From: Candidatus Magasanikiibacteriota bacterium
Lineage (GTDB): Bacteria; Patescibacteriota; Patescibacteriia; Magasanikbacterales; UBA922
NCBI GenBank assembly: GCA_041674805.1
Contig: JBAYVA010000002.1
Location: forward strand, 83,234-147,233
Direction: 5' to 3'
Length of the DNA: 64,000 nucleotides
Numbering within the stretch: position 1 is the stretch's first letter; each line of letters opens with the position of its first letter. Made by a program: the position numbers and the translations under genes. Positions 1,698 to 62,622 of the stretch are shown here, piece after piece. Under the pieces are notes generated by a model. It was not told where the DNA came from. It saw only the letters and a list, made by a program, of their open reading frames with translations, and made no database searches.

Positions 1698-1771
1698 TCG
1701 GAGTGAAAGGACTTGAACCTTCGACCCTCTGGTCCCAAACCAGATGCTCTAGCCAACTGAGCTACACTCCG
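1698..1771 (-). tRNA. tRNA-Pro (anticodon UGG)
   Basis: The reverse complement folds as a cloverleaf: CGGAGTG acceptor, GCTC/GAGC D-stem, anticodon loop TTTGGGA, T-loop TTCAAGT. CCA is not encoded. Confidence 0.9.
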
Positions 1772-1781
1772 TTATAAGTTA

Positions 1782-1841
1782 AAAGTTCATAAAGTTATAA
1801 AGTTTTTAAAGTTAAAAGTAACTTTTAACTTTATGAACTTT
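1782..1841. repeat. Long AT-rich hairpin between tRNA-Pro and tRNA-Phe
   Basis: 15-bp perfect inverted arms aaagttcataaagtt (1782-1796) / aactttatgaacttt (1827-1841), with an inner palindrome ttaaaagtaacttttaa. Built from tandem ATAAAGTT-like units. Confidence 0.7.
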
Positions 1842-1861
1842 AAAAACTTTCAACTTCTCTG

Positions 1862-9824: not shown

Positions 9825-10373
9825 TTATTTGTAAAAAATTTCCATTTTTACTCTTTTTACACCAAAATTTACAGCTTCATTTCTAGTTGGCATCCAAATA
9901 TCACCACGTCCGTAACCATATCTAGCATTCATTCTATCTCTTACTACGAAGATTTTGTCAACATAAAGATCTGGAAAACGTACTTTTGTTCCTAAAGGTA
10001 AAAAGTTAGCAGCAATTGTATTTTGTTCGCCAAACTTTTCATAGTTTTCACACAAATTATACTTATAATCTGCAGGAATACAAGGTGTGCTATCAGTTTG
10101 TCCAACATCACTTGAATAAGCTGTCATCACAGCCATTACAATTTTTCTAGGTTCAGCATCTTCAATATCAGGAAAAGAAGCTACTTCTTCCTCAGTTTCT
10201 TCTGCTTGAGCTACGTTATTTTTGAAAAAATCGCTAATTTTAGCAAAAAAGTCTCCTTTTGCTTCTACAACTTCTGGTTGTAAGGTATTAAACAAAACAG
10301 AGAAGACAACTATCAAAGATAAACTACCCTTAAAAAGGTGTTTATTTAGCTCTTTTTTTAATGTTTTTTTCAT
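9825..10373 (-). CDS. Secreted 3D-domain (MltA/RlpA-like barrel) cell-wall protein
   Basis: 182 aa with a signal peptide. The C-terminal TAYSS..GQTDSTPC...GTKV..P....FVVRDRMN...GDIW pattern fits 3D-domain proteins. Confidence 0.65.
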   Translation of the reverse strand: MKKTLKKELNKHLFKGSLSLIVVFSVLFNTLQPEVVEAKGDFFAKISDFFKNNVAQAEETEEEVASFPDIEDAEPRKIVMAVMTAYSSDVGQTDSTPCIPADYKYNLCENYEKFGEQNTIAANFLPLGTKVRFPDLYVDKIFVVRDRMNARYGYGRGDIWMPTRNEAVNFGVKRVKMEIFYK

Positions 10374-15250: not shown

Positions 15251-15764
15251 ATGTTTGTTGTTTTATTAGTATATATATATTTATATAACTAGTAATATAT
15301 AATAAGGCCTGTGTGTAAAGTGCGAAAGTCGTTTTTTTGTTTTGGTTGACTTATTTTTTTGTGTGGACTTCTGCGCTTAAACTGTGTTTTTAAATGTGGT
15401 ATTTCTGGTGATAACTTTTTTTTAATTTTTTTCCTGTTGATGAACTGTTGATTTGTGGATAGATTATGAACAGTCTTTTTTTAGTTATCAACTTTTTTGT
15501 TATCGAGAATTTTTTTTGTGAATTGTTTGTTATTAACTTTTTTTAAATATTATTTTTAAAGGAATAATTTTTATTAGTTTTTGTTTGTCTTGTCAGAACT
15601 CTTAGTTTGGAGTTGATAGAATGAATCTAATAAAAATATAATTTTTTGTTTGCTAATAAAACTTCTCTGTTTTTTTGTTGAGAAATTTTTCAAAAATTAT
15701 AATGATTTACAATTTTTGAAAAATCCCTCATCTTTTTTTTAAAAAGATTTTTGGGATTATTTTT
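15251..15764. other. dnaA-dnaN intergenic region with DnaA-box-like sites (candidate second oriC module)
   Basis: 514-bp ORF-free AT-rich spacer containing tgtggatag (15454-15462, 1 mismatch), tgtggactt (15362-15370), several TTATC(A/G)A variants, and the 12-mer attatgaacagt shared with the region upstream of dnaA. Confidence 0.5.
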
Positions 15765-17150
15765 TTAAACAGCGTTGGAATATAATCTTTGTTTTATCAT
15801 TTCCAAATCTTGTTTGAGCTTTAAGTCGTTGTCTATACTTTGTAATATTTTACTGTGTGCATGCATAGCTGTAGTATGATCTCTACCACCTAGTTCATCA
15901 CCTATATTTGGATAAGAAAGTTTCAACTCTTCTCTTAGCAAATACATGATAATTTGACGTGGAAAAGCTAATTTTTTTTCACGACTTTTGCCGAGTACAT
16001 CATCGATAGAGATATCAAAATAACCAGCTACGACATTTATTATTTCACGAGGAGTTAAAGAACGTTTCATACTTTGTTCTTCAAAACTAGATAATACTTG
16101 TTTAATAGTTTCTTCAGTTGCTTCAATATTTTTTAGTTCGTGATAAGCAATAATTTTGTTGAGAGCGCCTTCTAATTCACGAATATTATTTTTAACATTT
16201 GTCGCAATAAATTGGATAAGTTTTCCTTCAATTTTGAAATCTTTTTCCTGAGCTTTTCTTTGTAGAATAGCTAAACGAGTTTCTAAGTCAGGAGGAGAAA
16301 TATCAGCAATCATACCCCATTCAAATCTACTGCGTAAGCGATCTTCTAAAGCAGGTATGGCTTTTGGTGGTCTATCACTTGTTAAAACAACTTGTTTACC
16401 TTGTTGGTGTAATTCGTTGAAAGTGTGAAAAAATTCTTCTTGTGTTTGTTCTTTGCCACCAATAAATTGAATATCATCAATCAAAAGTAAATCAACATTT
16501 CTATATCTATCTTTGAATTCTTTGGCTCTACCTTCTTTTACAGAAGAAACAAATTCATTGGTAAATTTTTCAGAACTAACGTATAAAATTTTTGTTTGAG
16601 GATTGGCCTCAAGCATAGTATGGCCAATCGCTTGTATAAGATGAGTTTTTCCCAAACCTACTCCTCCATAAATGAATAAAGGGTTGTAAGAATCTCCAGG
16701 ACGACGAGCTACGGCTTGAGCTGCAGCATGAGCAAGTTCATTACCTTTACCTACGACAAAAGTATCAAAAGTATATTTTGGATTCAAACCAAATTGCTGA
16801 ACCAAAGTATTTTTTCTTTGGTTATTGTATAAAGGGTTTGTAATAGTAGAAATTTGTGGTAACTTCTCTGACATTTTACATTCAGATTCTTTGATATTTT
16901 TTATATTTTCTACTATATAATCTACTTTTTTGATAGGTTTGCCTGTCACTCTTTCTAAGATCTTGATTATTTGAGAGTGATGCTTCTTTTCTAACCAACT
17001 CTTTGTAAAGGAGTTAGGAACACAAATATTCACTAATCCTTCTTCATAATTTGCTATTCCTGTGTTTTTGAACCATGTCGTAAATTGAGCTTTGGATAAA
17101 CTTAGCTCAAATTCGGCCAAAACAGCTTGCCAGATTTCGTGAGTGGTCAT
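15765..17150 (-). CDS. dnaA: Chromosomal replication initiator DnaA
   Basis: 461 aa. Walker A GGVGLGKTHL, LLIDDIQF, sensor and box VII regions, C-terminal DNA-binding helix-turn-helix (..HTTAMHA..). Confidence 0.95.
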   Translation of the reverse strand: MTTHEIWQAVLAEFELSLSKAQFTTWFKNTGIANYEEGLVNICVPNSFTKSWLEKKHHSQIIKILERVTGKPIKKVDYIVENIKNIKESECKMSEKLPQISTITNPLYNNQRKNTLVQQFGLNPKYTFDTFVVGKGNELAHAAAQAVARRPGDSYNPLFIYGGVGLGKTHLIQAIGHTMLEANPQTKILYVSSEKFTNEFVSSVKEGRAKEFKDRYRNVDLLLIDDIQFIGGKEQTQEEFFHTFNELHQQGKQVVLTSDRPPKAIPALEDRLRSRFEWGMIADISPPDLETRLAILQRKAQEKDFKIEGKLIQFIATNVKNNIRELEGALNKIIAYHELKNIEATEETIKQVLSSFEEQSMKRSLTPREIINVVAGYFDISIDDVLGKSREKKLAFPRQIIMYLLREELKLSYPNIGDELGGRDHTTAMHAHSKILQSIDNDLKLKQDLEMIKQRLYSNAV

Positions 17151-19915: not shown

Positions 19916-21283
19916 TTAATGATTATGACCTGTATGATCTTCGTGATCTTCTTCTGCCATGGCATGTCCGTGAGAATGTTCTTCATGCTTATGTCTTTCA
20001 CCTTCTACTAATTTATCTGCCAAAAAGTTTACAACTTTTTTATTTAATAGCATGTTGTGAATAGAATCAAGTACTTCTGGTTTTTTCAAATTTTCTAGAT
20101 ACTCAGCAGTTTCTTTGTAGTATTCACGTAGATTTTTTACTTCAGCATCTAATTCATCTTTGGAAATAGTTAGACTGTGTGCTAGAGCTACTTCACGAGA
20201 AAGCAATGAAGCTTTGGCTCTATCAGTTGCTTTGTTTCTAAAATCTTCTTGTAATTCTTTTTCATTTTTTTTGATGTCTTGTAAATATTGTTCAATTGTT
20301 ACACCATGTTTTTCTAAATCATGTTGTAATTCATAAAACATTTTTTTGAGTTCAGCTTCTACTAACACTTCTGGAATTTCTTCAAATTTAGTTTCTTTGA
20401 TCAATGTTTCAAACATTTCTATTTCAGCTATTTCATCAGCTTTGTGTTCAGCTTCGTGAGTCAAATTTTCTTTGATTAGGTCTTTTAATTTGTCTAAACT
20501 TTCTTGTCCTAATACTTTGGCAAAAGCATCGTCTGCTTTTGGTATTTCTCTACCAAAAACTTCTTTTACTTTTACTTTGAATTTGCCAGTTTTACCAGCT
20601 AATTGTGCACTATAATAATTTTTTGGAAAAGGTAAATCAAATTCTTTTTCATCACCTTTTTCTAAACCAATCAAAGCATCATTGAAACCAGGGATATGTT
20701 GATGATCTTCTGATAAATAAACATTGTAATCAATAGCCTGTCCACCTTCTACTGGTACTCCATCCAAAAACAAATTCATATCTATAACGATCTTGTCTTC
20801 TTTTGTTGCTTTGCCTTTTTTGATTACTTCTTTTGCTTGCATTTTTAATAAATTATCAATAGTTTCATTTACTGATTGATCATTTACTTCTTTGACTGTT
20901 CTTTTTATTTTGATTGATTCTAATTTTGGTAATTCAACTTTTGGTAACAAAGCTACTTTGGCAGAATAAACTAAATCATTAGCAGGTGCCATTTTTTGAA
21001 TATTGATATCTGGCATGCCAATAGTATTTAATTTTTCAGCTGTTACAGTTTGATAAAAACTGTCTTGGATAATATCTTCCAAAGCTTCTTGCAAAAGTTT
21101 CATTTCACCTACTTCTTGTTTGACCATTTCAAAAGGAGCTTTGCCTTTGCGGAAACCTCTAATAGCTACACGATTTGAAATAGTAGTAGCTGCTTTTTCT
21201 AAATGTTTTTGATAATCTTTTGGACTAACTGTAATAGTAAGTTCAATTTGTGATTTTTCTAATTTTTCTATTTTGTGTTCCAT
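19916..21283 (-). CDS. tig: Trigger factor with a histidine-rich C-terminal tail
   Basis: 455 aa. Ribosome-binding signature GFRKGKAP and a central FKBP-like region. The final about 28 aa are GERHKHEEHSHGHAMAEEDHEDHTGHNH. Confidence 0.9.
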   Translation of the reverse strand: MEHKIEKLEKSQIELTITVSPKDYQKHLEKAATTISNRVAIRGFRKGKAPFEMVKQEVGEMKLLQEALEDIIQDSFYQTVTAEKLNTIGMPDINIQKMAPANDLVYSAKVALLPKVELPKLESIKIKRTVKEVNDQSVNETIDNLLKMQAKEVIKKGKATKEDKIVIDMNLFLDGVPVEGGQAIDYNVYLSEDHQHIPGFNDALIGLEKGDEKEFDLPFPKNYYSAQLAGKTGKFKVKVKEVFGREIPKADDAFAKVLGQESLDKLKDLIKENLTHEAEHKADEIAEIEMFETLIKETKFEEIPEVLVEAELKKMFYELQHDLEKHGVTIEQYLQDIKKNEKELQEDFRNKATDRAKASLLSREVALAHSLTISKDELDAEVKNLREYYKETAEYLENLKKPEVLDSIHNMLLNKKVVNFLADKLVEGERHKHEEHSHGHAMAEEDHEDHTGHNH

Positions 21284-21298
21284 ACTTTATTTTTTAAA

Positions 21299-21337
21299 AC
21301 GCGGAATTACGCGGACTTTTACGCGGATAGACGCGGA
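21299..21337. repeat. Four direct copies of ACGCGGA (spacing 10, 12, 10 nt) in the tig leader
   Basis: Copies at 21299-21305, 21309-21315, 21321-21327 and 21331-21337. They read TCCGCGT on the tig coding strand, and the nearest copy is 16 nt from the start codon. Confidence 0.85.
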
Positions 21338-21382
21338 AAGTGACCAAAATAATGCGTTTATTTTTGATTAAAAAGTGGCTAT

Positions 21383-21411
21383 AATATAGCTTGTTTTGCT
21401 TGAAATGTCAA
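21383..21411 (-). promoter_or_regulatory. Promoter of tig
   Basis: On the minus strand: TTGACA (21411-21406), 17-nt spacer, TATATT (21388-21383). Confidence 0.65.
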
Positions 21412-21417
21412 CTGTTG

Positions 21418-21460
21418 GCAAGCAGAGTAAGCAAAGTAAGCAGAATAGGCATAATAAGTT
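21418..21460. repeat. 43-bp element (copy A) upstream of the tig promoter; an inverted copy lies at 24970-25012
   Basis: The reverse complement aacttattatgcctattctgcttactttgcttactctgcttgc matches copy B at 39 of 43 positions. It contains three tandem YTGCTTRC-type units. Confidence 0.85.
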
Positions 21461-21461
21461 T

Positions 21462-21490
21462 TTGACGAGGATATTTTTTGGTGTTATTGT
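21462..21490 (+). promoter_or_regulatory. Candidate promoter of the GC-rich mini-gene
   Basis: TTGACG (21462-21467), 17-nt spacer, TATTGT (21485-21490). Confidence 0.45.
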
Positions 21491-21508
21491 TTGTTGCGGA
21501 GGTGAGAA

Positions 21509-21646
21509 ATGAAAGAATTTCTTGAGACCCTCATCGGCATTCTCGCTTCCCTTTTTTGGGGAGCGGTGTTCGCCGTTTTCCTCTTTGATGAGGAAGCGGC
21601 GGCGACCTTCCTGCGAGGGGAGGTCAAATATGTCACGGGGGTTTGA
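21509..21646 (+). CDS. 45-aa single-TM peptide, GC3-rich (candidate foreign mini-gene)
   Basis: Not in the ORF track. GGAGGTG Shine-Dalgarno 5 nt upstream of the ATG. Translation is MKEFLETLIGILASLFWGAVFAVFLFDEEAAATFLRGEVKYVTGV. Codons end mostly in G/C, unlike surrounding genes. Confidence 0.4.
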   Translation: MKEFLETLIGILASLFWGAVFAVFLFDEEAAATFLRGEVKYVTGV

Positions 21647-21696
21647 AAAGGAGGGCGGTCCGGGCGTACGTGCGCGGACCAAACTCATAAATTAAG

Positions 21697-21729
21697 ACCG
21701 TTTTTCTTTATTGAAAGACGGTTTTTTTT
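21697..21729 (+). terminator. Rho-independent terminator after the 45-aa mini-gene
   Basis: Stem accgtttttc / gaaagacggt (one mismatch), loop tttatt, then a T8 run. Confidence 0.6.
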
Positions 21730-21784
21730 GACAGTTCATTTTTTTGTAGTAGTTTTTAAATATCTTCCACGGAAGGAGGTGGTT

Positions 21785-21976
21785 GTGGGTGGTGAGAGCC
21801 CCTTTCATACGCTGATCCAGTGTCCAAACTGTAGGCGTTATACGGACTCAAGAGAGTTCGAAACGCTGACAAAAGATGGGGGAGAGTACAAAAAGTGCCC
21901 ATATTGTGGGTGGTCACATCTTGTGTCTATGCCCTCGGCGTACTTTAAGTATAGGAGGGACGATGGAATTAATTAG
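21785..21976 (+). CDS. 63-aa zinc-ribbon protein (CPNC..x21..CPYC), GC3-rich
   Basis: GTG start 6 nt after AGGAGG (21773-21778). Translation is VGGESPFHTLIQCPNCRRYTDSREFETLTKDGGEYKKCPYCGWSHLVSMPSAYFKYRRDDGIN. The track ORF 21728-21976 has an implausible AT-rich N-terminal extension from TTG. Confidence 0.5.
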   Translation: MGGESPFHTLIQCPNCRRYTDSREFETLTKDGGEYKKCPYCGWSHLVSMPSAYFKYRRDDGIN

Positions 21977-21996
21977 GTAAGGGGTGGGGAAGGTGG

Positions 21997-22034
21997 ATGC
22001 GCGCGACTTCTACGAAAGTGGTTGTCGTGCGCGT
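21997..22034 (+). other. GC-rich 11-bp stem-loop downstream of the zinc-ribbon gene
   Basis: atgcgcgcgac (21997-22007) pairs with gtcgtgcgcgt (22024-22034, including two G:U pairs) around a 16-nt loop. No T-run follows directly. Confidence 0.55.
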
Positions 22035-22065
22035 TCGTTCAAATAAAAAATAAAATTTTAAAATT

Positions 22066-22097
22066 AAAAAAACACTCTCAAATTGAGAGTGTTTTTT
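22066..22097. terminator. Bidirectional terminator shared by the GC-rich island and hppA
   Basis: Stem acactctca / tgagagtgt, loop aat, flanked by A- and T-runs. Confidence 0.75.
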
Positions 22098-22119
22098 ATT
22101 TCAGTTTAAATCAATGCTT

Positions 22120-24969: not shown

Positions 24970-25012
24970 AACTTATTCTGCCTATTTTGCTTACTTTGCT
25001 TATTTTGCTTGC
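24970..25012. repeat. 43-bp element (copy B) upstream of polA
   Basis: aacttattctgcctattttgcttactttgcttattttgcttgc, followed by tatgtTACAAT. Inverted relative to copy A (39/43 identity). Confidence 0.85.
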
Positions 25013-38842: not shown

Positions 38843-38943
38843 AATTTTATCTCTTCGTTATTGTAAAATAAGATAGATATAAGGAGATAAAATGGAGATG
38901 ATTAAATTATCTCTATCTTATATCTGTTTTATCTCAATTTTTT
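38843..38943. repeat. Cluster of GAGATAAAA / TTTTATCTC motif copies in the msrB-msrA spacer
   Basis: Includes gagataaaatggagat (38884-38899) and ttttatctcaatt (38927-38939), with further TATCTC copies in both orientations. Confidence 0.7.
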
Positions 38944-42443: not shown

Positions 42444-43007
42444 ATGTCAAATAAAATAATTTTAGGTTTTGTTGGTGATTTGGCTTCTGGTAAGGGAACC
42501 TTGGCTAAATATTTACAAGAAAAGTATAATTGTAATACTTACAGATTTTCTAATATGCTTCGTGATGTTTTAGATAGAATCTATGTAGAAAAAAATCGTG
42601 AAAATATGCAACTCGTTTCAAAAGTATTGCGCGAAAATTTTGGGCAAGATGTGATGAGCAATGTCATTGCCAAAGATGTGGTTGGTGACAAAAATGAACT
42701 TGTTGTGGTAGATGGTATTAGACGTCCAACTGACATCACTTATTTACAAAATTTAGAAGGTTTTCATCTAATATATATTACAGCTGACGTCAAAACTCGT
42801 TGGCAAAGAATGGTGAATCGTCAAGAAAATCCTGATGAAAAAGACAAAACGTTTGAACAATTTTTACTTGATGAACAAGCAGAAGCAGATATGCTGATAA
42901 AAGAGCTTGGTAGTAAAGCTGAAAAAACAATAAATAATGATGGTACAATCGAAGAACTTTATAACAAAATAGAAAATATTTTAGAAAGTTATGGACATAA
43001 AAATTAA
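42444..43007 (+). CDS. P-loop nucleoside-monophosphate kinase family protein (adenylate / UMP-CMP kinase-like), substrate unknown
   Basis: 187 aa. P-loop GDLASGKGT and VVDGIRRP (resembles the DGFPR of NMP kinases). Overlaps dut by 17 nt. Confidence 0.55.
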   Translation: MSNKIILGFVGDLASGKGTLAKYLQEKYNCNTYRFSNMLRDVLDRIYVEKNRENMQLVSKVLRENFGQDVMSNVIAKDVVGDKNELVVVDGIRRPTDITYLQNLEGFHLIYITADVKTRWQRMVNRQENPDEKDKTFEQFLLDEQAEADMLIKELGSKAEKTINNDGTIEELYNKIENILESYGHKN

Positions 43008-43425
43008 ACGCATAGACAAAAGTTTACCTTTACCAGAATACAAAACACAAGGCTCTATTGCTTTTGATATGTATTCTCGCGAAGAAATGAAAATTGCGCC
43101 AAAATCTTTGGCACTTTTACCAAGTAATTTCATTATCAAAACTCCAGAAAGTCACGGACTTATTTTGTCAGCTAGATCTAGTCTTGCTAAGAAAAAAGGT
43201 TTGATGCTCGCCAATGGTGTTGGTACAATTGATAGGGATTATTGTGGTGAAAATGATGAAATATTATTGTCAGTTTATAATTTTACAGATGCAGAAGTAA
43301 TTGTAGAAAAAGGTGAGCGTATCGCCCAAGGTATGTTTATGCGTATTGATAGTGGTAATTTTGTAGAAGTAGAAAAAATGGAAGAAAATGATAGGGGGGG
43401 GTTTGGGAGTACAGGTTCGTTTTAA
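42991..43425 (+). CDS. dut: dUTP diphosphatase
   Basis: 144 aa. AFDMYS, GVGTIDRDYCGE and C-terminal RGGFGSTG motifs. Confidence 0.85.
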   Translation: MDIKIKRIDKSLPLPEYKTQGSIAFDMYSREEMKIAPKSLALLPSNFIIKTPESHGLILSARSSLAKKKGLMLANGVGTIDRDYCGENDEILLSVYNFTDAEVIVEKGERIAQGMFMRIDSGNFVEVEKMEENDRGGFGSTGSF

Positions 43426-43443
43426 TGCAGATTAGTATTGATA

Positions 43444-43464
43444 TTTACGCGGATAGACGCGGAA
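43444..43464. repeat. 21-nt copy of the ACGCGGA-repeat element (two units) in the dut-thyA spacer
   Basis: tttacgcggatagacgcggaa is identical to 21318-21338. It ends 16 nt before the thyA ATG, in the opposite orientation relative to the downstream gene compared with the tig copy. Confidence 0.85.
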
Positions 43465-43479
43465 TTAATTTTATAAAAT

Positions 43480-44352
43480 ATGAAAGCATACTTGGATATT
43501 GTTAAAAAAATATTAGATAGTGGAATAGAAAAAACAGATAGAACAGGTACTGGTACTATTTCTATACCTGGCATCATGTTTGAACATGAAATGAGCAAAG
43601 GTTTTCCATTACTTACCACAAAAAAAATGCCTTTCAAAATTTTGGCTGTGGAGTTGGAATTTTTTATCAAAGGTCTTACTGACAAACAATGGTTGATTGA
43701 TAGAAACTGTCATATTTGGGATGAATGGGCAAATCCTGAAAAAGCTCCTTATGGACATGACGAAGCTAGCAAAAAAAGAATGGCAGAAGAAAGAGATTTG
43801 GGGCCAGTTTATGGTTTCCAATGGCGTCATTTTGGTGCACCTTATTATAATTATGATAGTGATTATACAGAACAAGGTTTTGATCAGCTGAAATATGTAG
43901 TTGATAATTTGAAAAATAAACCAGACGATAGAAGAATGGTTGTAAGCGCCTGGAATCCTGCAATGGCTTCTAAAATGGCTCTCCCTCCATGTCACTATGC
44001 TTTTCAAGTTACGGTTACTGATGGTAAATTAAATCTTATGTGGAACCAAAGATCTGTGGACACTATGCTAGGGCTTCCTTTTAATATCGCTAGTTATGCT
44101 TTGTTATTACATCTTTTGGCAAAAGAATCCAATTTGGGTGAGGGTAAGCTCGTTGGTTTCCTTGGTGACACTCATATTTACAAAAATCATATAGAAGGTG
44201 CAGAAGAACAACTTAGTCGTGATTCAAATAAATATCAATTACCAAAATTGGAAACAGAAAATTTCACTTCTATTTTTGACTGGAAAGCTGAAGATACCAA
44301 AGTCGTTGGTTACGAAAGTTTTGATAGAATAAAATTTGATATTGCTGTTTAA
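43480..44352 (+). CDS. thyA: Thymidylate synthase (ThyA type)
   Basis: 290 aa. DRTGTGT, FQWRHFG, catalytic LPPCHYAFQ, and DTHIY. Confidence 0.95.
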   Translation: MKAYLDIVKKILDSGIEKTDRTGTGTISIPGIMFEHEMSKGFPLLTTKKMPFKILAVELEFFIKGLTDKQWLIDRNCHIWDEWANPEKAPYGHDEASKKRMAEERDLGPVYGFQWRHFGAPYYNYDSDYTEQGFDQLKYVVDNLKNKPDDRRMVVSAWNPAMASKMALPPCHYAFQVTVTDGKLNLMWNQRSVDTMLGLPFNIASYALLLHLLAKESNLGEGKLVGFLGDTHIYKNHIEGAEEQLSRDSNKYQLPKLETENFTSIFDWKAEDTKVVGYESFDRIKFDIAV

Positions 44353-44363
44353 TTTAAAAATAT

Positions 44364-44834
44364 ATGCTTTCACTTATCGCCGCTATTTCAGAAAATAATT
44401 GCATTGGAAAAAACAATGCTTTGCCTTGGAATATCAAAGAAGACATGAAACATTTCAAAGAAATTACTAGTGGAAATATTGTTCTTATGGGACGTAATAC
44501 TTGGGAATCAATTCCCGAAAGATTTCGTCCACTGCCAAATAGAAAAAATATTGTGATTACTCGCGATGAAAATTATTTGTTGCCAGAAAATGTAGAAAAA
44601 TATTTTAGTATTGAAGAAGCTCTTGAAAAATACAAAAATGAAAATGTTTTTATCATTGGTGGAGCAAGTATTTATAAACAAACAATTGATATTGCTGATA
44701 AACTATATATTACCGAAGTTCACAAGACATTTGATGGAGATGTTTTTTTCCCAGAAATAAATAAAAATATTTGGAAAGAAGTTGGGCGTGAAGATTTTGG
44801 TGAATTTAGTTTTGTTGAGTACTCTCATAAATAA
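44364..44834 (+). CDS. folA: Dihydrofolate reductase
   Basis: 156 aa. IAAISENNCIGKNNALPW, LMGRNTWESIP, IIGGASIY. Confidence 0.9.
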   Translation: MLSLIAAISENNCIGKNNALPWNIKEDMKHFKEITSGNIVLMGRNTWESIPERFRPLPNRKNIVITRDENYLLPENVEKYFSIEEALEKYKNENVFIIGGASIYKQTIDIADKLYITEVHKTFDGDVFFPEINKNIWKEVGREDFGEFSFVEYSHK

Positions 44835-44870
44835 ATTGAGATAAAATAGAGATACAATTGAGATAATTTT
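44834..44870. repeat. GAGATAAAA motif copies in the folA-tmk spacer
   Basis: aattgagataaaa (44834-46) is the exact reverse complement of 38927-38939. gagataaaatagagat (44838-53) matches the 16-mer at 38884-99 at 15 of 16 positions. A second attgagataa follows. Confidence 0.7.
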
Positions 44871-46264: not shown

Positions 46265-46415
46265 ATTTATTTTTTATTTTCAAGAGACCTCCAAAATTTG
46301 GGGGTCTTTTCTTTTGTCTTTTCTCGTGTTACAATCAAGTTATGGATGTCTAACTTTGACTTTTTTTAGAGTCATCCTATAGACGTGCTATTAAGTTATT
46401 TTAAAAAAGATCCCT

Positions 46416-46433
46416 CTCCTTCGACTCCTTCGT
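46416..46433. repeat. Tandem CTCCTTCGN x2 upstream of gatB
   Basis: ctccttcga (46416-24) and ctccttcgt (46425-33), followed by the GC-rich cgctcaggatcgggatgac. It lies 28 nt before the gatB ATG. Confidence 0.75.
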
Positions 46434-46460
46434 CGCTCAGGATCGGGATGACAAAAACAT

Positions 46461-50729: not shown

Positions 50730-50866
50730 ACTCCGTTTATTACACATATATAAAAAGGCTTTATTTAGCCGATTAATTCATAATTTACAAATGGTTGTGA
50801 TTTCCATAAACCATTATAATGTGTAGTCATTTTAATTTATACATATTAAGTCTAATATATTCGTCT

Positions 50867-53788
50867 ATGAAAAAGAACTTTTTCGCTAAACTAGGCCATT
50901 TTTTCCTGGTTTCAGCTGTTTTATTCAATGGTTTTGGTGTAGCCTTTGTGAAGGCTGATGTTGTAGAAGTTTTGGGTATGTCTCCAAATACAGCAACTTT
51001 GTCTGAGGGTGACATTAACCCTATTTCTTTAGTAACAATTTCTAATTCATCTACTAGTACTATAAATCTAACATTTACTATGTCAGGTGAAGCTGTTAGA
51101 AGTATAGATGGTAGTGGTGATTATGAATTGTTTGTTGGGGAAGGTTCTCCATTTGTAGTTGTTGATACAAACTTAATAAGTGTGCCTGCAAATGATTCTG
51201 TCATCTTTCCTATAAATATTATAAATGACACAGTATCAGAAAATGCAGAATCTTTTGGTTTGACATTTGAAACAGCTAGTTATGATGATGAAAATAGAAC
51301 ACCTGTAGAAGGTTTTAGTTCTCGTGGTGCTATAAATTTTACTATCAATGATAATGATATTACACCTCCTACTTTTGATACTATTGTCCCTAGTCCATTT
51401 TCAAGAAATGAAAGTGATAATTTTGGTGGTATTGCTACTTTTATAAATAATGCTAGTACAACTTTAGATTTTCATTTTGAAATTAGTGGAACAGCTTCTA
51501 CATCTGATTATATAATTGAAACAACTAGTCGTAGTATAAATGAAAATGGAGATGTTATGGCGGTGCCTAATAGTGTGGATTTAGAAAATGGTATAATTAG
51601 TGGGGTTACAGGAAATGAAAAAAGAAGATTTAATTTTAAACCAGTAGAGGACACAGAAGTAGAAATTGATGAAACAGTTATTATTACATTGAAATATGCT
51701 ACTGATATTGAACAAAGAGTTTATGATTTTGCAGATATTTCTTACACTACTATTATTAAAGATAATGATACTGCATCCACTACTACCACAGCTAACGTCA
51801 CATTTTCTTTTTCAACTTCTACTATTAATGAAAATTCTGGTAATGTAAATGTTGCTAATGTTATTAATAATGAAAATCAAGATGTATCTGTGAAATTTAC
51901 ATTTTCTGGCACAGCAGTATATGGCACAGACTATACTTTGAGATCAGGAACTGGTACTTCTATTTTTGGTAATGGTACAGAAGCAGTACTTTTGATAGGT
52001 ATTAATAGTAGTAGTAGTTTTCCTTTGACTCTGAATACAGTTGATAGTGATAAAACTGTTGAAATTACTCTTACACAAGTAAATTTTGCGGATAATTCAA
52101 CAACAACATCTTTCACTGCAGGAAATGTTACAACACATACACTTACTATCAAAAATGTTCCTACATCAGGTGAAAATAATATTCCAACAATAAAAACACC
52201 GATAGCCACACAATATATAGATCTTTATGTTACTTCTACATTAACTATTAATAATGAAATATTAAAGAATTTATTTTTTGATTTAGATACTAATGATAGA
52301 GTTGGTATTAGTTTGACTAATAATACAGATGCTACTGTTGTAACAACAACATCAGACATAGAATTTTCTAGTTTAGTATTAACAGGTTTAAAAGTTGGAA
52401 CAAGTACTATTGAACTTACTGGTGATGATCATCGTGGTGGTATTGTTACCTCAACTTTCGATGTAATCGTTACTGATTCTACTCCTGTTGAGGGAAATAA
52501 TGCTCCAACATCAACTGTAATAGATGATAAAACATTGGAGGTTGGTCAGACTTTTGATATTATTCCTAGTGTTATTTTTGAAGATGTAGAAGATAGTGAT
52601 GATAAGTTAACTTATGGTGTAGAAATTAGTGCTGGTTCTGTTGTTTCTGTAACAACAACAAATTTTACAAATTCTTGGGCATATACTTTTACTGCTGAAA
52701 GTGTAGGTACTTCTACAATTACTCTTAGTGCAACTGATTTGGGTGGTCTTAGTACAAGTACATCATTTAAGGTAACTGTCACAGAAGATGTAACACCTAT
52801 ATTAATAAAAGAAATAGTTAATCAAACTTTAAAAGTAGGTGAAAGTGTAGTTTTGAACTTAAATGATTATTTTTCAGATCCAAACGAAGATGTCTTGTCT
52901 TTTTTAACAAGTATTAACGTTCCAAATTTAATTACTACAACACTTAATACTGAAACAAATAAATTAACAATTACTGGTGTAGCTATAGGTACAACTCTTA
53001 TGAGTGTTACTGCCTCTGATAGTCAACATAGTGTTTATGATATATTTAATGTCACAGTAAAAGAAAATAATGAAGGTAATACTGATAACAATACCGGTTC
53101 AAGTAACGGCGGTGGTAGTTTATTACCAAACACAGCTCCTCAAGCTTCTATGGTTGTTGGTCAAGAAGTAACTATCGAAGTAAACAAAGAAATTACTTTT
53201 GATGCTAGTAGTAGTGTAGATAAAGAAGGAAACATTAGATTTTATTTCTGGAACTTTGGTGACGGAAGTGATGAAGTATATTACACTGTCCCAACAGTCA
53301 AATATACTTATACTAAAATAGGTAATTACACTTTGAATATCAAAGTAAAAGATGCTTACGGTGCTGAGAGTAGTGCGCAAGTAAAGGTAAAAGTTGTAGC
53401 TGGCAAAGCTTCTACAAATACGGGAACTCCAAATACTAATACTGAAAGTGGAACTAAAACTGAAACTGAAACTACAACTTCTACTTCAACAACTGATACC
53501 CCAACTCCTGTAGAAGAAACTGGAAGTACTGGTAGTACAAATAATAATACTAACAATAACACTTCTGCTAATAATACTGAAGAAGAAGCAATAACAACTG
53601 AGGAAGAAAATACTTCTATAGAAGAAGAGACTACTTCTGAAAATACTGAAGAAGAAATTACTGAAGAAGTACCTGCTGAAACAACAGAAGAATTACCAAC
53701 TTGGATCAAGATCATCTTTGGCAGTGGTGCTCTAGCTGCTATTGCTGGCGCTGGACTTGCTATCAATAGAGTGAGAAAAAATGTGTAA
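50867..53788 (+). CDS. Giant surface protein A: signal peptide, Calx-beta-like repeats, cadherin/Ig-like repeats, PKD domain, T/N/E-rich linker, C-terminal TM anchor
   Basis: The start is set at MKKNFFAKLGHFF.. by homology to the paralog. Calx-beta-like blocks include FTMSGEAV..GDYEL.. and FTFSGTAVYGTDYTL. PKD segment is FYFWNFGDGSDEVYYTVPTVKYTYTKIGNYTL. Anchor is WIKIIFGSGALAAIAGAGLAINRVRKN. Confidence 0.8.
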   Translation: MKKNFFAKLGHFFLVSAVLFNGFGVAFVKADVVEVLGMSPNTATLSEGDINPISLVTISNSSTSTINLTFTMSGEAVRSIDGSGDYELFVGEGSPFVVVDTNLISVPANDSVIFPINIINDTVSENAESFGLTFETASYDDENRTPVEGFSSRGAINFTINDNDITPPTFDTIVPSPFSRNESDNFGGIATFINNASTTLDFHFEISGTASTSDYIIETTSRSINENGDVMAVPNSVDLENGIISGVTGNEKRRFNFKPVEDTEVEIDETVIITLKYATDIEQRVYDFADISYTTIIKDNDTASTTTTANVTFSFSTSTINENSGNVNVANVINNENQDVSVKFTFSGTAVYGTDYTLRSGTGTSIFGNGTEAVLLIGINSSSSFPLTLNTVDSDKTVEITLTQVNFADNSTTTSFTAGNVTTHTLTIKNVPTSGENNIPTIKTPIATQYIDLYVTSTLTINNEILKNLFFDLDTNDRVGISLTNNTDATVVTTTSDIEFSSLVLTGLKVGTSTIELTGDDHRGGIVTSTFDVIVTDSTPVEGNNAPTSTVIDDKTLEVGQTFDIIPSVIFEDVEDSDDKLTYGVEISAGSVVSVTTTNFTNSWAYTFTAESVGTSTITLSATDLGGLSTSTSFKVTVTEDVTPILIKEIVNQTLKVGESVVLNLNDYFSDPNEDVLSFLTSINVPNLITTTLNTETNKLTITGVAIGTTLMSVTASDSQHSVYDIFNVTVKENNEGNTDNNTGSSNGGGSLLPNTAPQASMVVGQEVTIEVNKEITFDASSSVDKEGNIRFYFWNFGDGSDEVYYTVPTVKYTYTKIGNYTLNIKVKDAYGAESSAQVKVKVVAGKASTNTGTPNTNTESGTKTETETTTSTSTTDTPTPVEETGSTGSTNNNTNNNTSANNTEEEAITTEEENTSIEEETTSENTEEEITEEVPAETTEELPTWIKIIFGSGALAAIAGAGLAINRVRKNV

Positions 53789-54158: not shown

Positions 54159-57100
54159 ATGAAAAATAATTTTTTTGCTAAACTGGGAAACTTTTTTCTG
54201 GTTTCGGCTGTATTGTTCAATGGTTTTGGGGTAGGTTTGGTAAGTGCAGAATATGCAGAAGTTGTCTCTCCCACATTCTCTTTACTTGTTGATAATGTAA
54301 AAGAAGGAAATTTAGGAGAAACAACTACTTATAATGTTGGTGTAAAATATAATGGTCCAGTTTTGGTCTCTGATTATACTGTGGAAGTAATATTTTATAG
54401 TGTTTTAAATGATACTTTTGCTGAATATGGTGTTGATTATGAGGTACCTAATTCTGTGCCTAATTTGGAAGATTCTTCGTATTTTCTTACTTTTACGCCA
54501 GCAACACAAAATGATGAATTGTTTGTTCCTGTAACTGTTATGGGTAACGATACTATTAATAGTTTTAATGTTTTATTCAAATACATTATTTTTACTATAA
54601 AAGGTATTAATATCGACCAACCTGACCAGCTGTTTGGTTTGAGTATTGAAGATGATGATGTTCCTACTATTATTGAACCAATATTTACTCCCGCTACTTC
54701 TGTTGTCTATGAAGGTGTTGCTACAGGAGCTAATGTTACTAAGTTGGTAAACAATAATAATACTGATTTAATTTATACTATTGAACTTACTGGTGATGCT
54801 TTACTCGAACAAGAATTTGGATTGTCTGTTATTGATGAACAAAATATCTCTACACCAATCATGAGTAATTTTTTCAATCTTTCTGTACCAAGAAATTCTA
54901 GTTCTACTTTTTCTGTTCGTACAAATGGTATTTATGATAATTCGTCTTTTGATAATGTTGCAAAACAGACAATTTGGACTGTAACAAATGCGTTTGATGA
55001 GAGTATCTTTATTGATTATGATTTATCTTTAAGTAATATCAACTTTACTTTGGATATAAAAGATGAGGAAAATGATGTAGGTTTTATAAATCCAGCTTCA
55101 TCTGTTGCAGAAGGAATTTCATTGAATGACTCTAATTCATCACTTGTATACAACAATGGTACTGACAATGATGTGTCTTTGACATTTGAACTTTCGGGTA
55201 CGGCATCTTCTTTAACGGATTATACTGTAAGAACAAATGAATTGAGTTCAGGTTCTACTTGGGTAGTACCAAAAAATTCTATTAAATCTTTTCCTGTAGA
55301 TATCTTGAATGTAACTGGTGAAAAAAATTTAGTGTTTACAATTACAAAAATAGATTTATTAAATGACAATGGTACCATTAAAAATGGAAATATTACACCT
55401 ATTTTACCGAATGCACAGACACACACTTTGACAATTCTGGATAATGTTGTACCGCCTGTAAATCATGCACCTGTTGCAATTATGCAACCAATACTTTTGG
55501 GTAATGTTAATGTTGGTTCAAACTCAACCCCTGTTTCATTTTCAACCACTTTTTCAGATCCTGATTCAGATGTACTTACATATAGTGTAGAACTTTCAAA
55601 TCCTGTAATTGCAACATCTCAAATAACAGCAGGTGAGTTGGTACTTACAGGAACAAGTGTCGGTACAACAACAGTAACAATGATGGCTACAGATCCTGAT
55701 GGCTTGAGTGCTAGTACCACGTTTAGTTTGACTGTCGTAGAAAATAATAATGGTGGTGGAAATAATTCTCCAACAGTAAATATTCCAATAGCCACACAAT
55801 ATATTGATCTCTATACTACTTCCACATTAACTATTAATAATGCAATATTGCAGAATTTATTTTCTGATGCTGATGTTAATGACATAGTTGGTATTAGTTT
55901 GACTAATAATACAGATGCTACTGTTGTGACAACAACACCAGGCATAGAATTTTCTAGTTTAATGTTGACAGGTTTGAAAGTCGGTGCAAGTGTTATTGAA
56001 CTTACGGGAGATGATACACATGGTGGTATTGTTACCTCTACTTTTGCGGTAATCGTTAGTGACTCTACTCCTATAGAAGGAAATAATGCTCCTACATTAT
56101 CAACTACAACAGTATTTGTAGATAACGAAATTTCTTTGCAAGAAACATTTGGATCAAATCTTCATCTTTATTTCGAAGATGTTGATGCGGGTGATACATT
56201 AACTTTTTCAGCTACTACAACTGATGCTTCTATAGTGACAAGTGGAATTGACGCATTGGGTCAAATAACACTGACACCACATAATTATGGTACAGTTCAA
56301 GTAATTGTTACTGCCACAGATAATCAAGGTGCTAGTGTCTCTGATGCATTTTCTTTGAAAGTAAATACTCCACCAGAATTAACAGTAAATACTTTAGGAA
56401 ATAAACAAATTGATTTGAAAGTATCATCTAGTTTGTTAATAGATAGTAATACAATTCGTGGTGTTTTTACAGATAGAGATGGAGAAATACTTACTATTTC
56501 TGTAAGTGATAATAGTGATAATACTGTTGTAACAACTACTCTTGGAGAAGATGATTCTCTCACTTTACTTGGTTTAAAAGTGGGAACAAGTACGATTGAA
56601 ATCACTGCTGACGATGGTTATGAAATTACCTCTACTACATTTCTTGTTACGGTTGTAAATTCTACATCTGAAGAAACAGGGAATAATGGTGGCAACTCTG
56701 GCAGTTCAAGTGGATCTAGTGGCGGTGGTGGTTCTGCTCTTCTTTCTAATACAGCTCCTCAAGCTGCTATAACTAATGGTCAAGAAGTAACTGTGGAAGT
56801 AAACAAAGAAATTACTTTTGATGCTAGTCAAAGTACTGACAAAGAAAATAATATTAGATTTTACTTCTGGAACTTTGGTGATGATAGTGATGAAGTATAT
56901 TACACGGTACCAACAGTCAAACATACTTATACTAAAATAAGTAATTACACTTTGATAAGCAAAGTACGTGATGCTTACGGTGCTGAGAGTATTGCTGAAG
57001 TAAAAGTAAAAGTTGTAGCTGCTAAAGGTTCTACAAATACGGGAACTACAAATAATACTTCAAATACTAATACAGAAAGTGAAACTAAAAATGAAACTAC

Positions 57101-57431
57101 AATTCCAAAAACTGATACAACTACATCTGTAAAAGAAACTGGAAGTACTGGTACTACTACAAATACTAATAACAATAATTCTTCTAACAATACTGAAGAA
57201 GAAACAGTTATTGAAGAAGAAATTATAGAAGAAAGTACAATTGAGGAAGAAGATACTTCTTCTGAAGAAGAGTTTATTTTTGAAAATATCAAAGAAGAAA
57301 GTATTAAAGAAACACCAGTTGGAGAAGTAGAAGAACTACCAACTTGGATAAAAATCATCTTTGGTAGTGGTGCTTTAGCTGCTGTAGCTGGCGCTGGTCT
57401 TGCTATTAATAAAGTGAGAAAGAATATATAA
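54159..57431 (+). CDS. Giant surface protein B (paralog of A)
   Basis: 1090 aa. It shares a near-identical signal peptide, an internal block (PIATQYIDLY.TSTLTINN.IL.NLF.D.D.ND.VGISLTNNTDATVVTTT..IEFSSL.LTGLKVG.S.IELTGDD..GGIVTSTF.VIV.DSTP.EGNNAPT), the PKD domain and the C-terminal anchor with protein A. Confidence 0.8.
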   Translation: MKNNFFAKLGNFFLVSAVLFNGFGVGLVSAEYAEVVSPTFSLLVDNVKEGNLGETTTYNVGVKYNGPVLVSDYTVEVIFYSVLNDTFAEYGVDYEVPNSVPNLEDSSYFLTFTPATQNDELFVPVTVMGNDTINSFNVLFKYIIFTIKGINIDQPDQLFGLSIEDDDVPTIIEPIFTPATSVVYEGVATGANVTKLVNNNNTDLIYTIELTGDALLEQEFGLSVIDEQNISTPIMSNFFNLSVPRNSSSTFSVRTNGIYDNSSFDNVAKQTIWTVTNAFDESIFIDYDLSLSNINFTLDIKDEENDVGFINPASSVAEGISLNDSNSSLVYNNGTDNDVSLTFELSGTASSLTDYTVRTNELSSGSTWVVPKNSIKSFPVDILNVTGEKNLVFTITKIDLLNDNGTIKNGNITPILPNAQTHTLTILDNVVPPVNHAPVAIMQPILLGNVNVGSNSTPVSFSTTFSDPDSDVLTYSVELSNPVIATSQITAGELVLTGTSVGTTTVTMMATDPDGLSASTTFSLTVVENNNGGGNNSPTVNIPIATQYIDLYTTSTLTINNAILQNLFSDADVNDIVGISLTNNTDATVVTTTPGIEFSSLMLTGLKVGASVIELTGDDTHGGIVTSTFAVIVSDSTPIEGNNAPTLSTTTVFVDNEISLQETFGSNLHLYFEDVDAGDTLTFSATTTDASIVTSGIDALGQITLTPHNYGTVQVIVTATDNQGASVSDAFSLKVNTPPELTVNTLGNKQIDLKVSSSLLIDSNTIRGVFTDRDGEILTISVSDNSDNTVVTTTLGEDDSLTLLGLKVGTSTIEITADDGYEITSTTFLVTVVNSTSEETGNNGGNSGSSSGSSGGGGSALLSNTAPQAAITNGQEVTVEVNKEITFDASQSTDKENNIRFYFWNFGDDSDEVYYTVPTVKHTYTKISNYTLISKVRDAYGAESIAEVKVKVVAAKGSTNTGTTNNTSNTNTESETKNETTIPKTDTTTSVKETGSTGTTTNTNNNNSSNNTEEETVIEEEIIEESTIEEEDTSSEEEFIFENIKEESIKETPVGEVEELPTWIKIIFGSGALAAVAGAGLAINKVRKNI

Positions 57432-61721: not shown

Positions 61722-61740
61722 TTTTTTGGTTAGTTCTATT

Positions 61741-61756
61741 ATCTCCATTTTATCTC
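61741..61756 (-). repeat. GAGATAAAATGGAGAT 16-mer (minus-strand copy)
   Basis: atctccattttatctc is the exact reverse complement of 38884-38899. It lies 108 nt upstream of the pseudouridine synthase gene. Confidence 0.75.
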
Positions 61757-61863
61757 TATTTATTATTAGATTTTATTAAAATATAAAAATATTCCGCCCA
61801 AGGCTGATCAGTCTTCGCTGAAAAAGTATTAAAACACTCTCGTTAAGTAAGTATTTCAAAATT

Positions 61864-62622
61864 ATGCTCGTTCGTCTCCAAAAACACATCGCAGATTTAG
61901 GAATTTGTTCTCGTCGTAAGGCTGAAGAACTTATTTTGGCTAAAAAAGTAAAAGTAAATGGAAAATTAATTACAGAAATGGGTGTAAAAGTGGATCCAGA
62001 AAAAGATAAAGTTGAAATCATAACAGACAAAAAAACAAAAACATTTGTAAAAAGAACTTTTGATAGTCCTGTTAATAATAATGGCAAAGTTTATATTATT
62101 TTGAACAAACCTGTTGGTTACATTACAAGTGCTTCTAGTGAACAAGGTGAATCAGTGTTGGATCTTTTGACTTCACAAAACTGTGTAATGAAAGGTGGAG
62201 AAGTGAAGGCTAGAGTTTATCCTGTTGGTCGTTTAGACAAAGATTCTGAAGGATTAGTACTTTTGACTAACGATGGTGATTTGACGAATGAACTTACTCA
62301 TCCTCGTTATGAACACGAAAAAGAATATGAAATTACTATTGATGGTTTTCTTACCAAAGATGCTGTGAAGATATTGACCAAGGGTATGCAAATAGGTGAT
62401 GATTATGTAAATGGTATACAGCTTGTGAAAGAATTCAAAAAAGGACGTACTTCTATTATTACAGCAATTTTAACAGAAGGTAAAAACAGACAAATTAGAA
62501 AGATGTTTGGTAGTATTGGTTACCGTGTAATGACCTTACGTCGTAGCCGTATAAATAAATTGAAATTGGGTGTATTGCCTGTGGGAAAGTGGAAATATAT
62601 AACTAAAGATAAAATTGTTTAA
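61864..62622 (+). CDS. Pseudouridine synthase, RsuA/RluB family, with N-terminal S4 domain
   Basis: 252 aa. S4-like RLQKHIADLGICSRRKAEELI and catalytic GRLDKDSEGLVLLTNDG. Confidence 0.85.
   Translation: MLVRLQKHIADLGICSRRKAEELILAKKVKVNGKLITEMGVKVDPEKDKVEIITDKKTKTFVKRTFDSPVNNNGKVYIILNKPVGYITSASSEQGESVLDLLTSQNCVMKGGEVKARVYPVGRLDKDSEGLVLLTNDGDLTNELTHPRYEHEKEYEITIDGFLTKDAVKILTKGMQIGDDYVNGIQLVKEFKKGRTSIITAILTEGKNRQIRKMFGSIGYRVMTLRRSRINKLKLGVLPVGKWKYITKDKIV

Follow-up and report, generated by a model that had tools for sequence, protein, structure and literature searches.

A helically phased heptamer array before tig and thyA in uncultivated Magasanikbacteria: most likely the docking site of a DNA-binding regulator

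Introduction

Two genes of a Candidatus Magasanikiibacteriota bacterium, tig (trigger factor) and thyA (thymidylate synthase), are transcribed from opposite strands and carry an identical 21-nt sequence upstream of their start codons, raising the question of what is read there: the DNA, by a factor indifferent to the direction of transcription, or the RNA, by pairing of the two complementary mRNAs. Both possibilities were put forward in an earlier note on a 64-kb stretch of this genome, the whole of which is referred to here as the window. To our knowledge, almost nothing is known of gene regulation in bacteria of the Candidate Phyla Radiation (CPR), which cannot yet be grown alone, and a literature search on regulatory motifs, Shine-Dalgarno use and leaderless mRNAs in Patescibacteria/CPR gave no relevant titles, judged by title. 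In the present study, the repeat was traced through the window and through loci fetched from relatives (L numbers below). In a small group of uncultivated Magasanikbacteria, the array to which it belongs most likely serves as a docking site for a DNA-binding regulator, not as an mRNA-pairing device.

Results

The 21-mer is one half of a phased four-unit array

The window contains exactly two copies of TTTACGCGGATAGACGCGGAA, both on the plus strand (Table 1). No further match was found in the window at up to three mismatches, and none in 100 dinucleotide-preserving shuffles, giving a chance expectation of none. The identity of the two sites reported earlier was thus borne out, as was the placement of tig on the minus and thyA on the plus strand, confirmed by gene coordinates and Pfam. 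The sequence TTTACGCGGATAGACGCGGAA consists of two units of a heptamer, ACGCNGA, and forms one half of a four-unit array. The core ACGCGGA occurs eight times in the window (0.57 expected); six copies are intergenic (four before tig, two before thyA), while the other two are isolated singles inside coding sequence, at 4087 (minus strand) and 32548 (plus strand). The window has a G+C content of about 30% and is depleted of CpG (886 CG versus 1696 GC dinucleotides), and the CGCG-rich arrays are therefore not compositional noise. Only two arrays are present in these 64 kb, and Tandem Repeats Finder does not report the ACGCNGA arrays in the window.

The heptamer logo, built from 44 units, reads A-C-G-C-N-G-A, with G3, C4, G6 and A7 nearly invariant and position 5 free to take all four bases. 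Start-to-start spacing of the units is 10-12-10 bp in seven of eleven arrays, and within 1 bp of this in the remainder, in agreement with the helical repeat of B-DNA. The 10-12-10 geometry spans 32 bp, or about three helical turns, and is found at four loci in both transcriptional orientations. Each array can be read as two 7-3-7 units (ACGCNGA-N3-ACGCNGA; in the window ACGCGGA-TAG-ACGCGGA and ACGCGGA-ATT-ACGCGGA), the starts of which lie 22 bp, or about two helical turns, apart, placing all four heptamers on one face of B-DNA. The units are not contiguous, being separated by spacers of 3 and 5 nt that differ in sequence. The arrays are pure direct repeats, with neither a palindromic body nor terminal inverted repeats; the only hairpins possible are those of the 4-bp CGCG core, and the heptamer variants ACGCAGA, ACGCTGA and ACGCCGA break this palindrome. 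Every array found lies in an untranslated stretch that is expected to be transcribed, and none overlaps -35/-10 elements.

Table 1. Coordinates of the genes, arrays and 21-mer copies (window positions, unless a relative's locus is named).
Feature	Position	Strand	Evidence
tig (trigger factor), 455 aa	19916-21283	-	Pfam
tig-leader array, four ACGCGGA at 21299, 21309, 21321 and 21331, spacing 10-12-10	21299-21337	+	orthologous arrays in L001, L002, L003, L095
21-mer copy 1 (tig-array units 3 and 4, promoter-proximal half)	21318-21338	+	exact match
Predicted sigma-70-type tig promoter, TTGACA-17-TATATT	21383-21411	-	11 of 12 consensus positions
dut (dUTPase)	42991-43425	+	Pfam
dut-thyA array, 10-12-10 phasing	43425-43463	+	intact four-unit orthologue in L086-L089
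21-mer copy 2	43444-43464	+	identical in L084, L085, L086-L089
thyA (thymidylate synthase), 290 aa	43480-44352	+	Pfam
Polarity-scored arrays in L003	9948-9986, 11715-11752
Polarity-scored arrays in L092	2246-2285, 4709-4725

The tig leader

On the tig strand (minus) the units read TCCGCGT. The array lies between the promoter match and the tig ATG, starting about 45 nt downstream of the -10 hexamer, and 15 bases (21284-21298) separate the ATG from the nearest heptamer. Since the tig copy of the 21-mer sits between a strong promoter match and the start codon, the tig mRNA should carry its reverse complement, as the earlier note had supposed. Both promoter hexamers are invariant in four genomes, and the promoter is retained in more lineages. 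The earlier observation that the repeat stands at the same distance from both start codons holds for the array edges (15 nt in each case), but not for the 21-mers themselves: the tig copy, forming the distal half of its array, is 34 nt from the tig ATG.

The four-unit tig array is present in five Candidatus Magasanikbacteria lineages, represented by the window, L001/L223, L002/L099-L101, L003 and L095-L097. In a sister lineage (L094 and L098) it has decayed to two recognisable outer units, and the outgroup L222, the Tig of which is 64% identical, keeps the promoter but has a leader of 31 nt and no array. This distribution points to a gain in one subclade, followed by decay in one branch. The relatives of its Tig place the source of the window in Candidatus Magasanikbacteria, within the CPR.

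Some features of the DNA upstream of tig were recorded separately. The stretch from the tig promoter to the H+-pyrophosphatase gene (21400-22100; L002 2807-3601; L095 1302-2222) has a G+C content of about 0.40, compared with 0.30 for the genome. It includes a 45-aa ORF (21509-21646) preceded by one of the few strong Shine-Dalgarno sequences in the window, with a 45-aa gene at the L099 counterpart, and an 82-aa zinc-ribbon-like ORF (21728-21976) with a weak Pfam match. At the same place in relatives lies a 264-aa ORF (L002, upstream of tig) with a GC content far above that of its genome and without a Pfam match. The stretch looks like foreign DNA.

The dut-thyA junction

The array before thyA begins at the final base of the dut stop codon and consists of two decayed units, ATGCAGA (43425) and GTATTGA (43435), and two intact ACGCGGA units (43447 and 43457), with 15 bases (43465-43479) between the 21-mer and the thyA ATG. 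The genes form a putative operon in the order dCMP deaminase, kinase, dut, thyA, folA, tmk, with a promoter-like site upstream of 41956, and no terminator-like site was found between dut and thyA. The array was also considered as an internal thyA promoter, a possibility that was rejected when a consensus scan of the dut-thyA region gave no acceptable match.

Among relatives, L084 and L085 derive from the same genome or strain as the window. The loci L086-L089 (ThyA 90% identical) carry an intact array, GCGCTGA-ctt-GCGCTGA-ctttt-ACGCGGA-tag-ACGCGGA, including the identical 21-mer; here an insertion of about 85 nt with a GC-rich hairpin leaves the 21-mer about 100 nt from the thyA ATG. The thyA locus of the L002 genome (L092/L093) retains a degenerate AAACAGA-ttt-AAACTGA, and the array is absent from L090 and L091. 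If the sample SRR11476867 loci L098 and L090 belong to one genome, a joint loss is possible, the tig array having decayed in the former and the thyA array being missing in the latter. A ThyA-based metagenome scan returned 80 loci, all too distant at no more than 77% identity, with the motif upstream of thyA in none.

GC-rich hairpin-like insertions just upstream of start codons are found in the window (46400-46460), in L086 (about 2860-2925) and before thyA in L006, L016 and L026. The insertion before gatB ends in ...gatccctctccttcgactccttcgtcgctcaggatcgggatgacaaaaacatATG, and similar ends, ...tcgggatgacaaa, occur in distant loci. These insertions may represent a small mobile element whose target is the DNA just preceding genes.

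Two further loci in relatives

The sequence searched amounted to about 64 kb for this genome and roughly 150 kb for its close relatives. A combined pattern and position-weight-matrix search over the window and all fetched loci revealed the array in only two further places. One is the yidD-yggU spacer of L003, L223 and L095, where the array is sense to yggU; in L003 its end and the yggU ATG are 13 nt apart. The other is in L092, where it lies at the stop codon of the transaldolase gene (tal), upstream of a terminator hairpin. At all three non-tig loci (thyA, yggU and tal) the array is in the sense orientation and complementary to the tig leader, an arrangement with a chance probability of 1 in 8. 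Beyond these four loci, a looser position-weight-matrix scan of the window and close relatives gave nothing above background, and no similar arrays were found in about 700 kb of more distant CPR loci.

Matches to the 7-3-7 dimer in a viral collection were rejected as instances of the same element, being mostly in coding sequence or high-GC contigs, as was the match in L117, an apparent giant-virus contig with a simple tandem repeat. In this collection, two phage contigs of G+C 0.43-0.47, L103 (5120-5215, minus strand) and L137 (about 2780-2870), contain three tandem tgacaACGCGGAaagACGCGGAa copies, those of L103 lying between a terminator and a scaffold-protein-like gene; this is the same 7-3-7 dimer in an unrelated context.

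Selection on the arrays and kinship of the copies

The thyA 21-mer is identical at 21 of 21 positions between the window and L086, while four-fold degenerate sites are only 0.59-0.64 identical, giving a neutral probability of about 1e-5 to 1e-4. Considering only the nine positions outside the heptamer consensus, all of which are unchanged, the probability is about 0.01-0.02. Likewise, L003 and L095 do not differ in the central 18 nt of their yggU arrays, at a four-fold identity of 0.48. Persistence of the sequence with four-fold sites near saturation indicates selection, and the arrays are, on these sequence comparisons, functional and not drifting. Orthologous spacers (TAG at thyA, ATAATA at yggU) are more conserved than recognition of the heptamers alone would predict. 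Four-fold divergence is near saturation in all lineages, and gives no resolution on whether L086 (thyA) and L095 (tig) come from one genome.

Arrays at different loci have both spacers and heptamers in common: an exact stretch of 25 nt is common to the tig array of the window and the thyA array of L086, and the yggU arrays are similar to the tig arrays of L001-L003. This makes the arrays paralogous copies; they did not arise independently of one another. The identity of the two 21-mers in the window would then result from the thyA array being a paralogous copy of the tig array, with purifying selection at each locus.

Other repeats and features of the window

The window holds two other families of phased repeats. 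The first consists of GTAAGCAAA-like repeats with a period of 9 bp: a 43-nt array (21418-21460) immediately precedes the tig -35 element, and an inverted copy, 91% complementary, at 24970-25012 abuts the extended -10 promoter (TGnTACAAT) of the gene at 25043; both have the same orientation relative to the downstream gene. The pair looks like a promoter-upstream binding array, in which case tig would have two different arrays. The other family, with GAGATA/TATCTC units and an 11-bp period, is found at 38877-38943, 44830-44869 and 61731-61763, corresponding respectively to the region upstream of msrA (direct and inverted units), the folA-tmk spacer, and the region upstream of a pseudouridine synthase gene at 61864; the arms at 38904-38943 and 44830-44869 are 85% complementary over 40 nt.

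In sister lineages, the yidD-yggU spacer contains other repeats in place of ACGCNGA (L098 2940-2987, L101 6341-6384, L094 2100-2190, L222 about 9840-9900). Among them, ATAAAGTT, with a period of about 8, is present in yidD-yggU of sister lineages, between tRNA genes of the window (1771-1850) and upstream of thyA in L015, and TAGTTCG, with a period of 7-8, is also found upstream of the tig promoter in L222. With these other dispersed families in the window and its relatives, the ACGCNGA array appears as one case of a wider genomic habit.

Gene starts in the window have almost no Shine-Dalgarno sequences; the upstream 30 nt are A/T-rich, and many starts have a TATAAT-like hexamer 5-25 nt from the ATG, suggesting that leaders may be short or absent. 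Four to five TTTTTTGTTATCAAC repeats between dnaN and dnaA (15478-15543) probably constitute the cluster of DnaA boxes at the replication origin. Two adjacent large paralogous genes (50819-53788 and 54159-57431) have DNA blocks that are 80-86% identical, and in L084 both are annotated with PKD domains.

Discussion

A regulator binding double-stranded DNA

An oligomeric protein reading double-stranded DNA is indicated by the helical phasing, the four-unit geometry, the contact-like pattern of conservation and the presence of arrays facing either way relative to transcription. Of the two explanations in the earlier note, the orientation-independent DNA-binding factor is thus favoured, on the basis of phased 10-12-10 arrays at four loci. 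The repeat, its geometry, its conservation, its positions and the selection acting on it are shown here, whereas we infer that a protein binds, that DNA is its target, and in which direction it regulates. In the proposed mechanism, to which we give about even confidence, a putative protein would attach to double-stranded DNA as two dimers, each arranged head to tail and both on the same helix face, and block transcription. A sequence-specific protein would recognise the double-stranded ACGCNGA heptamer, with one head-to-tail dimer per 7-3-7 unit, and four subunits would line up on one helix face as a dimer of dimers. The positions of the arrays (tig leader, dut-thyA, yidD-yggU, 3' end of tal) are internal to transcription units, suggesting that the action of the bound complex would be independent of orientation. 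With arrays downstream of the tig promoter and between cistrons, a block to RNA polymerase or repression close to the promoter is the most economical mode: the bound complex would obstruct the elongating polymerase or act as a promoter-proximal repressor, whichever way the array faces, and would modulate tig and separate the expression of thyA-folA-tmk from that of the genes before them. The presence of other phased-repeat families of the window in non-transcribed DNA upstream of promoters, in both orientations, makes DNA-level repeat arrays plausible in this organism. As for the regulator itself, among 53 proteins of the window and relatives scanned against Pfam, DnaA and a weak zinc ribbon gave the only DNA-binding domains.

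Arrangements of this kind have precedents. Tandem Spo0A boxes and OmpR/PhoB-type sites are direct repeats of 6-7 bp with a periodicity of about 10-11 bp, bound head to tail, and some, for instance the Spo0A boxes at abrB, repress from a position downstream of the start site. The likeness to the present arrays lies in the phased direct repeats, whereas the sequences differ and the regulators are response regulators. The operator of CtsR, the class III heat-shock repressor of Firmicutes, is a dimer-bound heptanucleotide direct repeat, A/GGTCAAA-NAN-A/GGTCAAA (PMC12634643). It shares the 7-3-7 direct repeat, its sites can be multiple, and its targets are protein-quality-control genes, as tig is a chaperone gene (PMC12634643). 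However, the consensus A/GGTCAAA does not correspond to ACGCNGA; at clp genes, CtsR sites coincide in part with the -35/-10 elements or the start site, whereas the present arrays lie at +18 to +85 of the inferred start or between cistrons; CtsR is known from Firmicutes, whereas the host here is a CPR bacterium; and no ctsR gene was found among the Pfam-scanned window proteins. The MraZ operator of Mollicutes, (AAAGTGKN3)3 (PMC5282649), is an oligomer-bound array of at least three 7-nt boxes with 3-nt spacers and a 10-bp period, compared with four units here. Its core is GTG instead of CGCNGA, its spacing is a uniform 10 instead of 10-12-10, and its sites belong to the promoter of the cell-division cluster, whereas the arrays at tig, thyA, yggU and tal adjoin no such cluster. 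Being unlike those of CtsR and MraZ in both sequence and position, the ACGCNGA array falls outside these regulons.

Alternative explanations

The location of the arrays in transcribed regions only and the sense orientation of the non-tig arrays would also fit a function at the RNA level. The mRNA-pairing proposal holds that the UCCGCGU repeats of the tig leader pair in trans with sense ACGCNGA arrays, coupling translation or stability, with the dut-thyA junction as the partner in this genome. The tig-thyA complement in the window is perfect over 21 bp, that between the L002 tig leader and the 3' end of tal in L092 is nearly so over 17 bp with one G-U pair, and that between tig and yggU in L003 comprises 10 + 7 bp. 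Compared with shuffled controls, the duplexes have far lower energies, both in the window and for some of its relatives, both the tig leader and the dut-thyA junction are expected to be transcribed from their promoter and operon structure, the thyA, yggU and tal arrays are all oriented so as to be complementary to the tig leader, and leader accessibility could matter in a genome almost without Shine-Dalgarno sequences. A stable tig-thyA duplex nevertheless follows automatically from the same array being present in the opposite transcriptional orientation, and three of three orientations would arise by chance with a probability of 1 in 8. The 21-nt pairing is thus thermodynamically possible, but comparative data do not support it. 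The co-variation of the two copies in relatives, proposed earlier as a check, was not seen, the arrays being conserved locus by locus without following the tig leader of the same genome, and the independent drift that the earlier note had named as telling against pairing was found in tig versus yggU on the L095 and L223 contigs: these same-contig arrays share at most one heptamer, with scores of 9 for L095 and 7 for L001/L223 and a longest exact match of 7 in both, and array pairs taken across genomes score at least as high as pairs from the same genome. Pairing also sits poorly with the conserved 21-mer about 100 nt from the thyA ATG in L086-L089 and with the L092 array in a 3' untranslated region upstream of a terminator, and leaves the internal 10-12-10 periodicity and the free fifth position unexplained; we consider it unlikely. 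With respect to known trans-acting antisense and mRNA-mRNA interactions, the resemblance is the 21 nt of perfect complementarity between two predicted transcripts, and the difference is that the partners show no co-variation in relatives and that the complementary segment is itself a periodic repeat. A related idea, that the arrays of about 40-45 nt (ACGCNGA and the two other window families) are copy-and-paste cassettes whose sense and antisense RNAs pair, such that thyA, yggU or tal transcripts titrate the tig leader, is very unlikely; if true, it would constitute an mRNA-mRNA network in a bacterium with almost no Shine-Dalgarno sequences. Finally, the sense arrays (thyA, yggU, tal) could be cis-acting elements read by an RNA-binding protein or through an RNA structure, with the tig copy acting via an antisense transcript or as a decoy. 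In line with this, all arrays are in untranslated transcribed regions, their edges lie 13-16 nt from the start codons of tig, the window thyA and the L003 yggU, and the CGCG cores permit small hairpins, with folding z-scores of -2.1 to -3.7 in three of five sequences. A single-strand reader, however, cannot recognise both a sequence and its complement, and the best-conserved array, that of tig, is the antisense one. The consensus fold has only eight pairs, in two 4-bp CGCG-core helices with one compensatory change; two of five leaders fold no better than shuffles; and ACGCAGA, ACGCTGA and ACGCCGA destroy the palindrome. This weak consensus fold and the shuffle-level folding of two leaders led us to reject a conserved RNA structure in the tig leader, and Rfam gave no match at E <= 1 in 21200-21520 or 43350-43560, and only tRNAs in the whole window at gathering thresholds. 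A cis-acting RNA element is accordingly improbable.

At the DNA level, the arrays might instead be a dispersed cassette of about 40-45 nt with no regulatory role, copied between untranslated regions and tolerated there, comparable to REP or STRR elements. The spacers common across loci, including the 25 nt exact between the window tig and L086 thyA arrays, indicate copying and not convergence. The arrays occupy the space from a stop codon to the next start region, other phased families of 40-43 nt occur in the window in both orientations, and the yidD-yggU spacer holds different repeat families depending on the lineage. REP/BIME and cyanobacterial STRR elements are likewise short, multi-copy and located in intergenic transcribed DNA, with several families per genome, but REP elements are palindromic, which the ACGCNGA arrays are not, and STRR are contiguous tandem heptamers, whereas the arrays here are spaced, low in copy number and fixed at four units. 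Strong purifying selection on orthologous copies at near-saturated divergence, and the fixed geometry and position-specific conservation, argue for function; the terminal inverted repeats or hairpins used by known transposases are lacking, and two arrays in 64 kb are few for such an element. A tolerated cassette therefore has a small chance of being the right explanation. Less likely still is a polar chromosome signal read relative to replication, for example by a translocase, a factor associated with the fork or a protein of the nucleoid. The window does hold the origin region (dnaA at 15765-17150, dnaN, rnpA and the GC-skew minimum), and the tig, yggU and window thyA arrays read ACGCNGA 5' to 3' away from the origin, with leading-strand polarity, the tig gene pointing towards it; in L092, on a contig without an origin, the tal and thyA arrays are co-oriented with the window thyA array in a syntenic segment (Table 1). 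Only four independent loci are available, however, which leaves the polarity relative to the origin not significant, and at three of them the array in any case has the direction of its gene. Polar motifs usually occur as single, scattered words and not as phased arrays of four units within untranslated regions, and the origin region itself has no array. The transcribed-only location, the origin polarity and the conservation of spacers keep the RNA-level and chromosome-level readings alive, and the rest of the probability goes to explanations beyond those listed here.

Significance

Under the favoured reading, that of a DNA-binding regulator, the finding by itself, an operator array, is of an ordinary type, and it is the organism that is unusual. 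What has been obtained is a well-defined cis-element under selection, with a clear geometry, located on a chaperone gene and a thymidylate operon. The 17-bp or 39-bp double-stranded site provides a concrete probe for fishing out the regulator, and the ACGCNGA element serves as a marker of a small clade, in which its gain, its spread to new loci and its decay can be traced. If several families of phased arrays are truly in use in one and the same genome, they would offer a general lesson on how reduced genomes build regulatory DNA.
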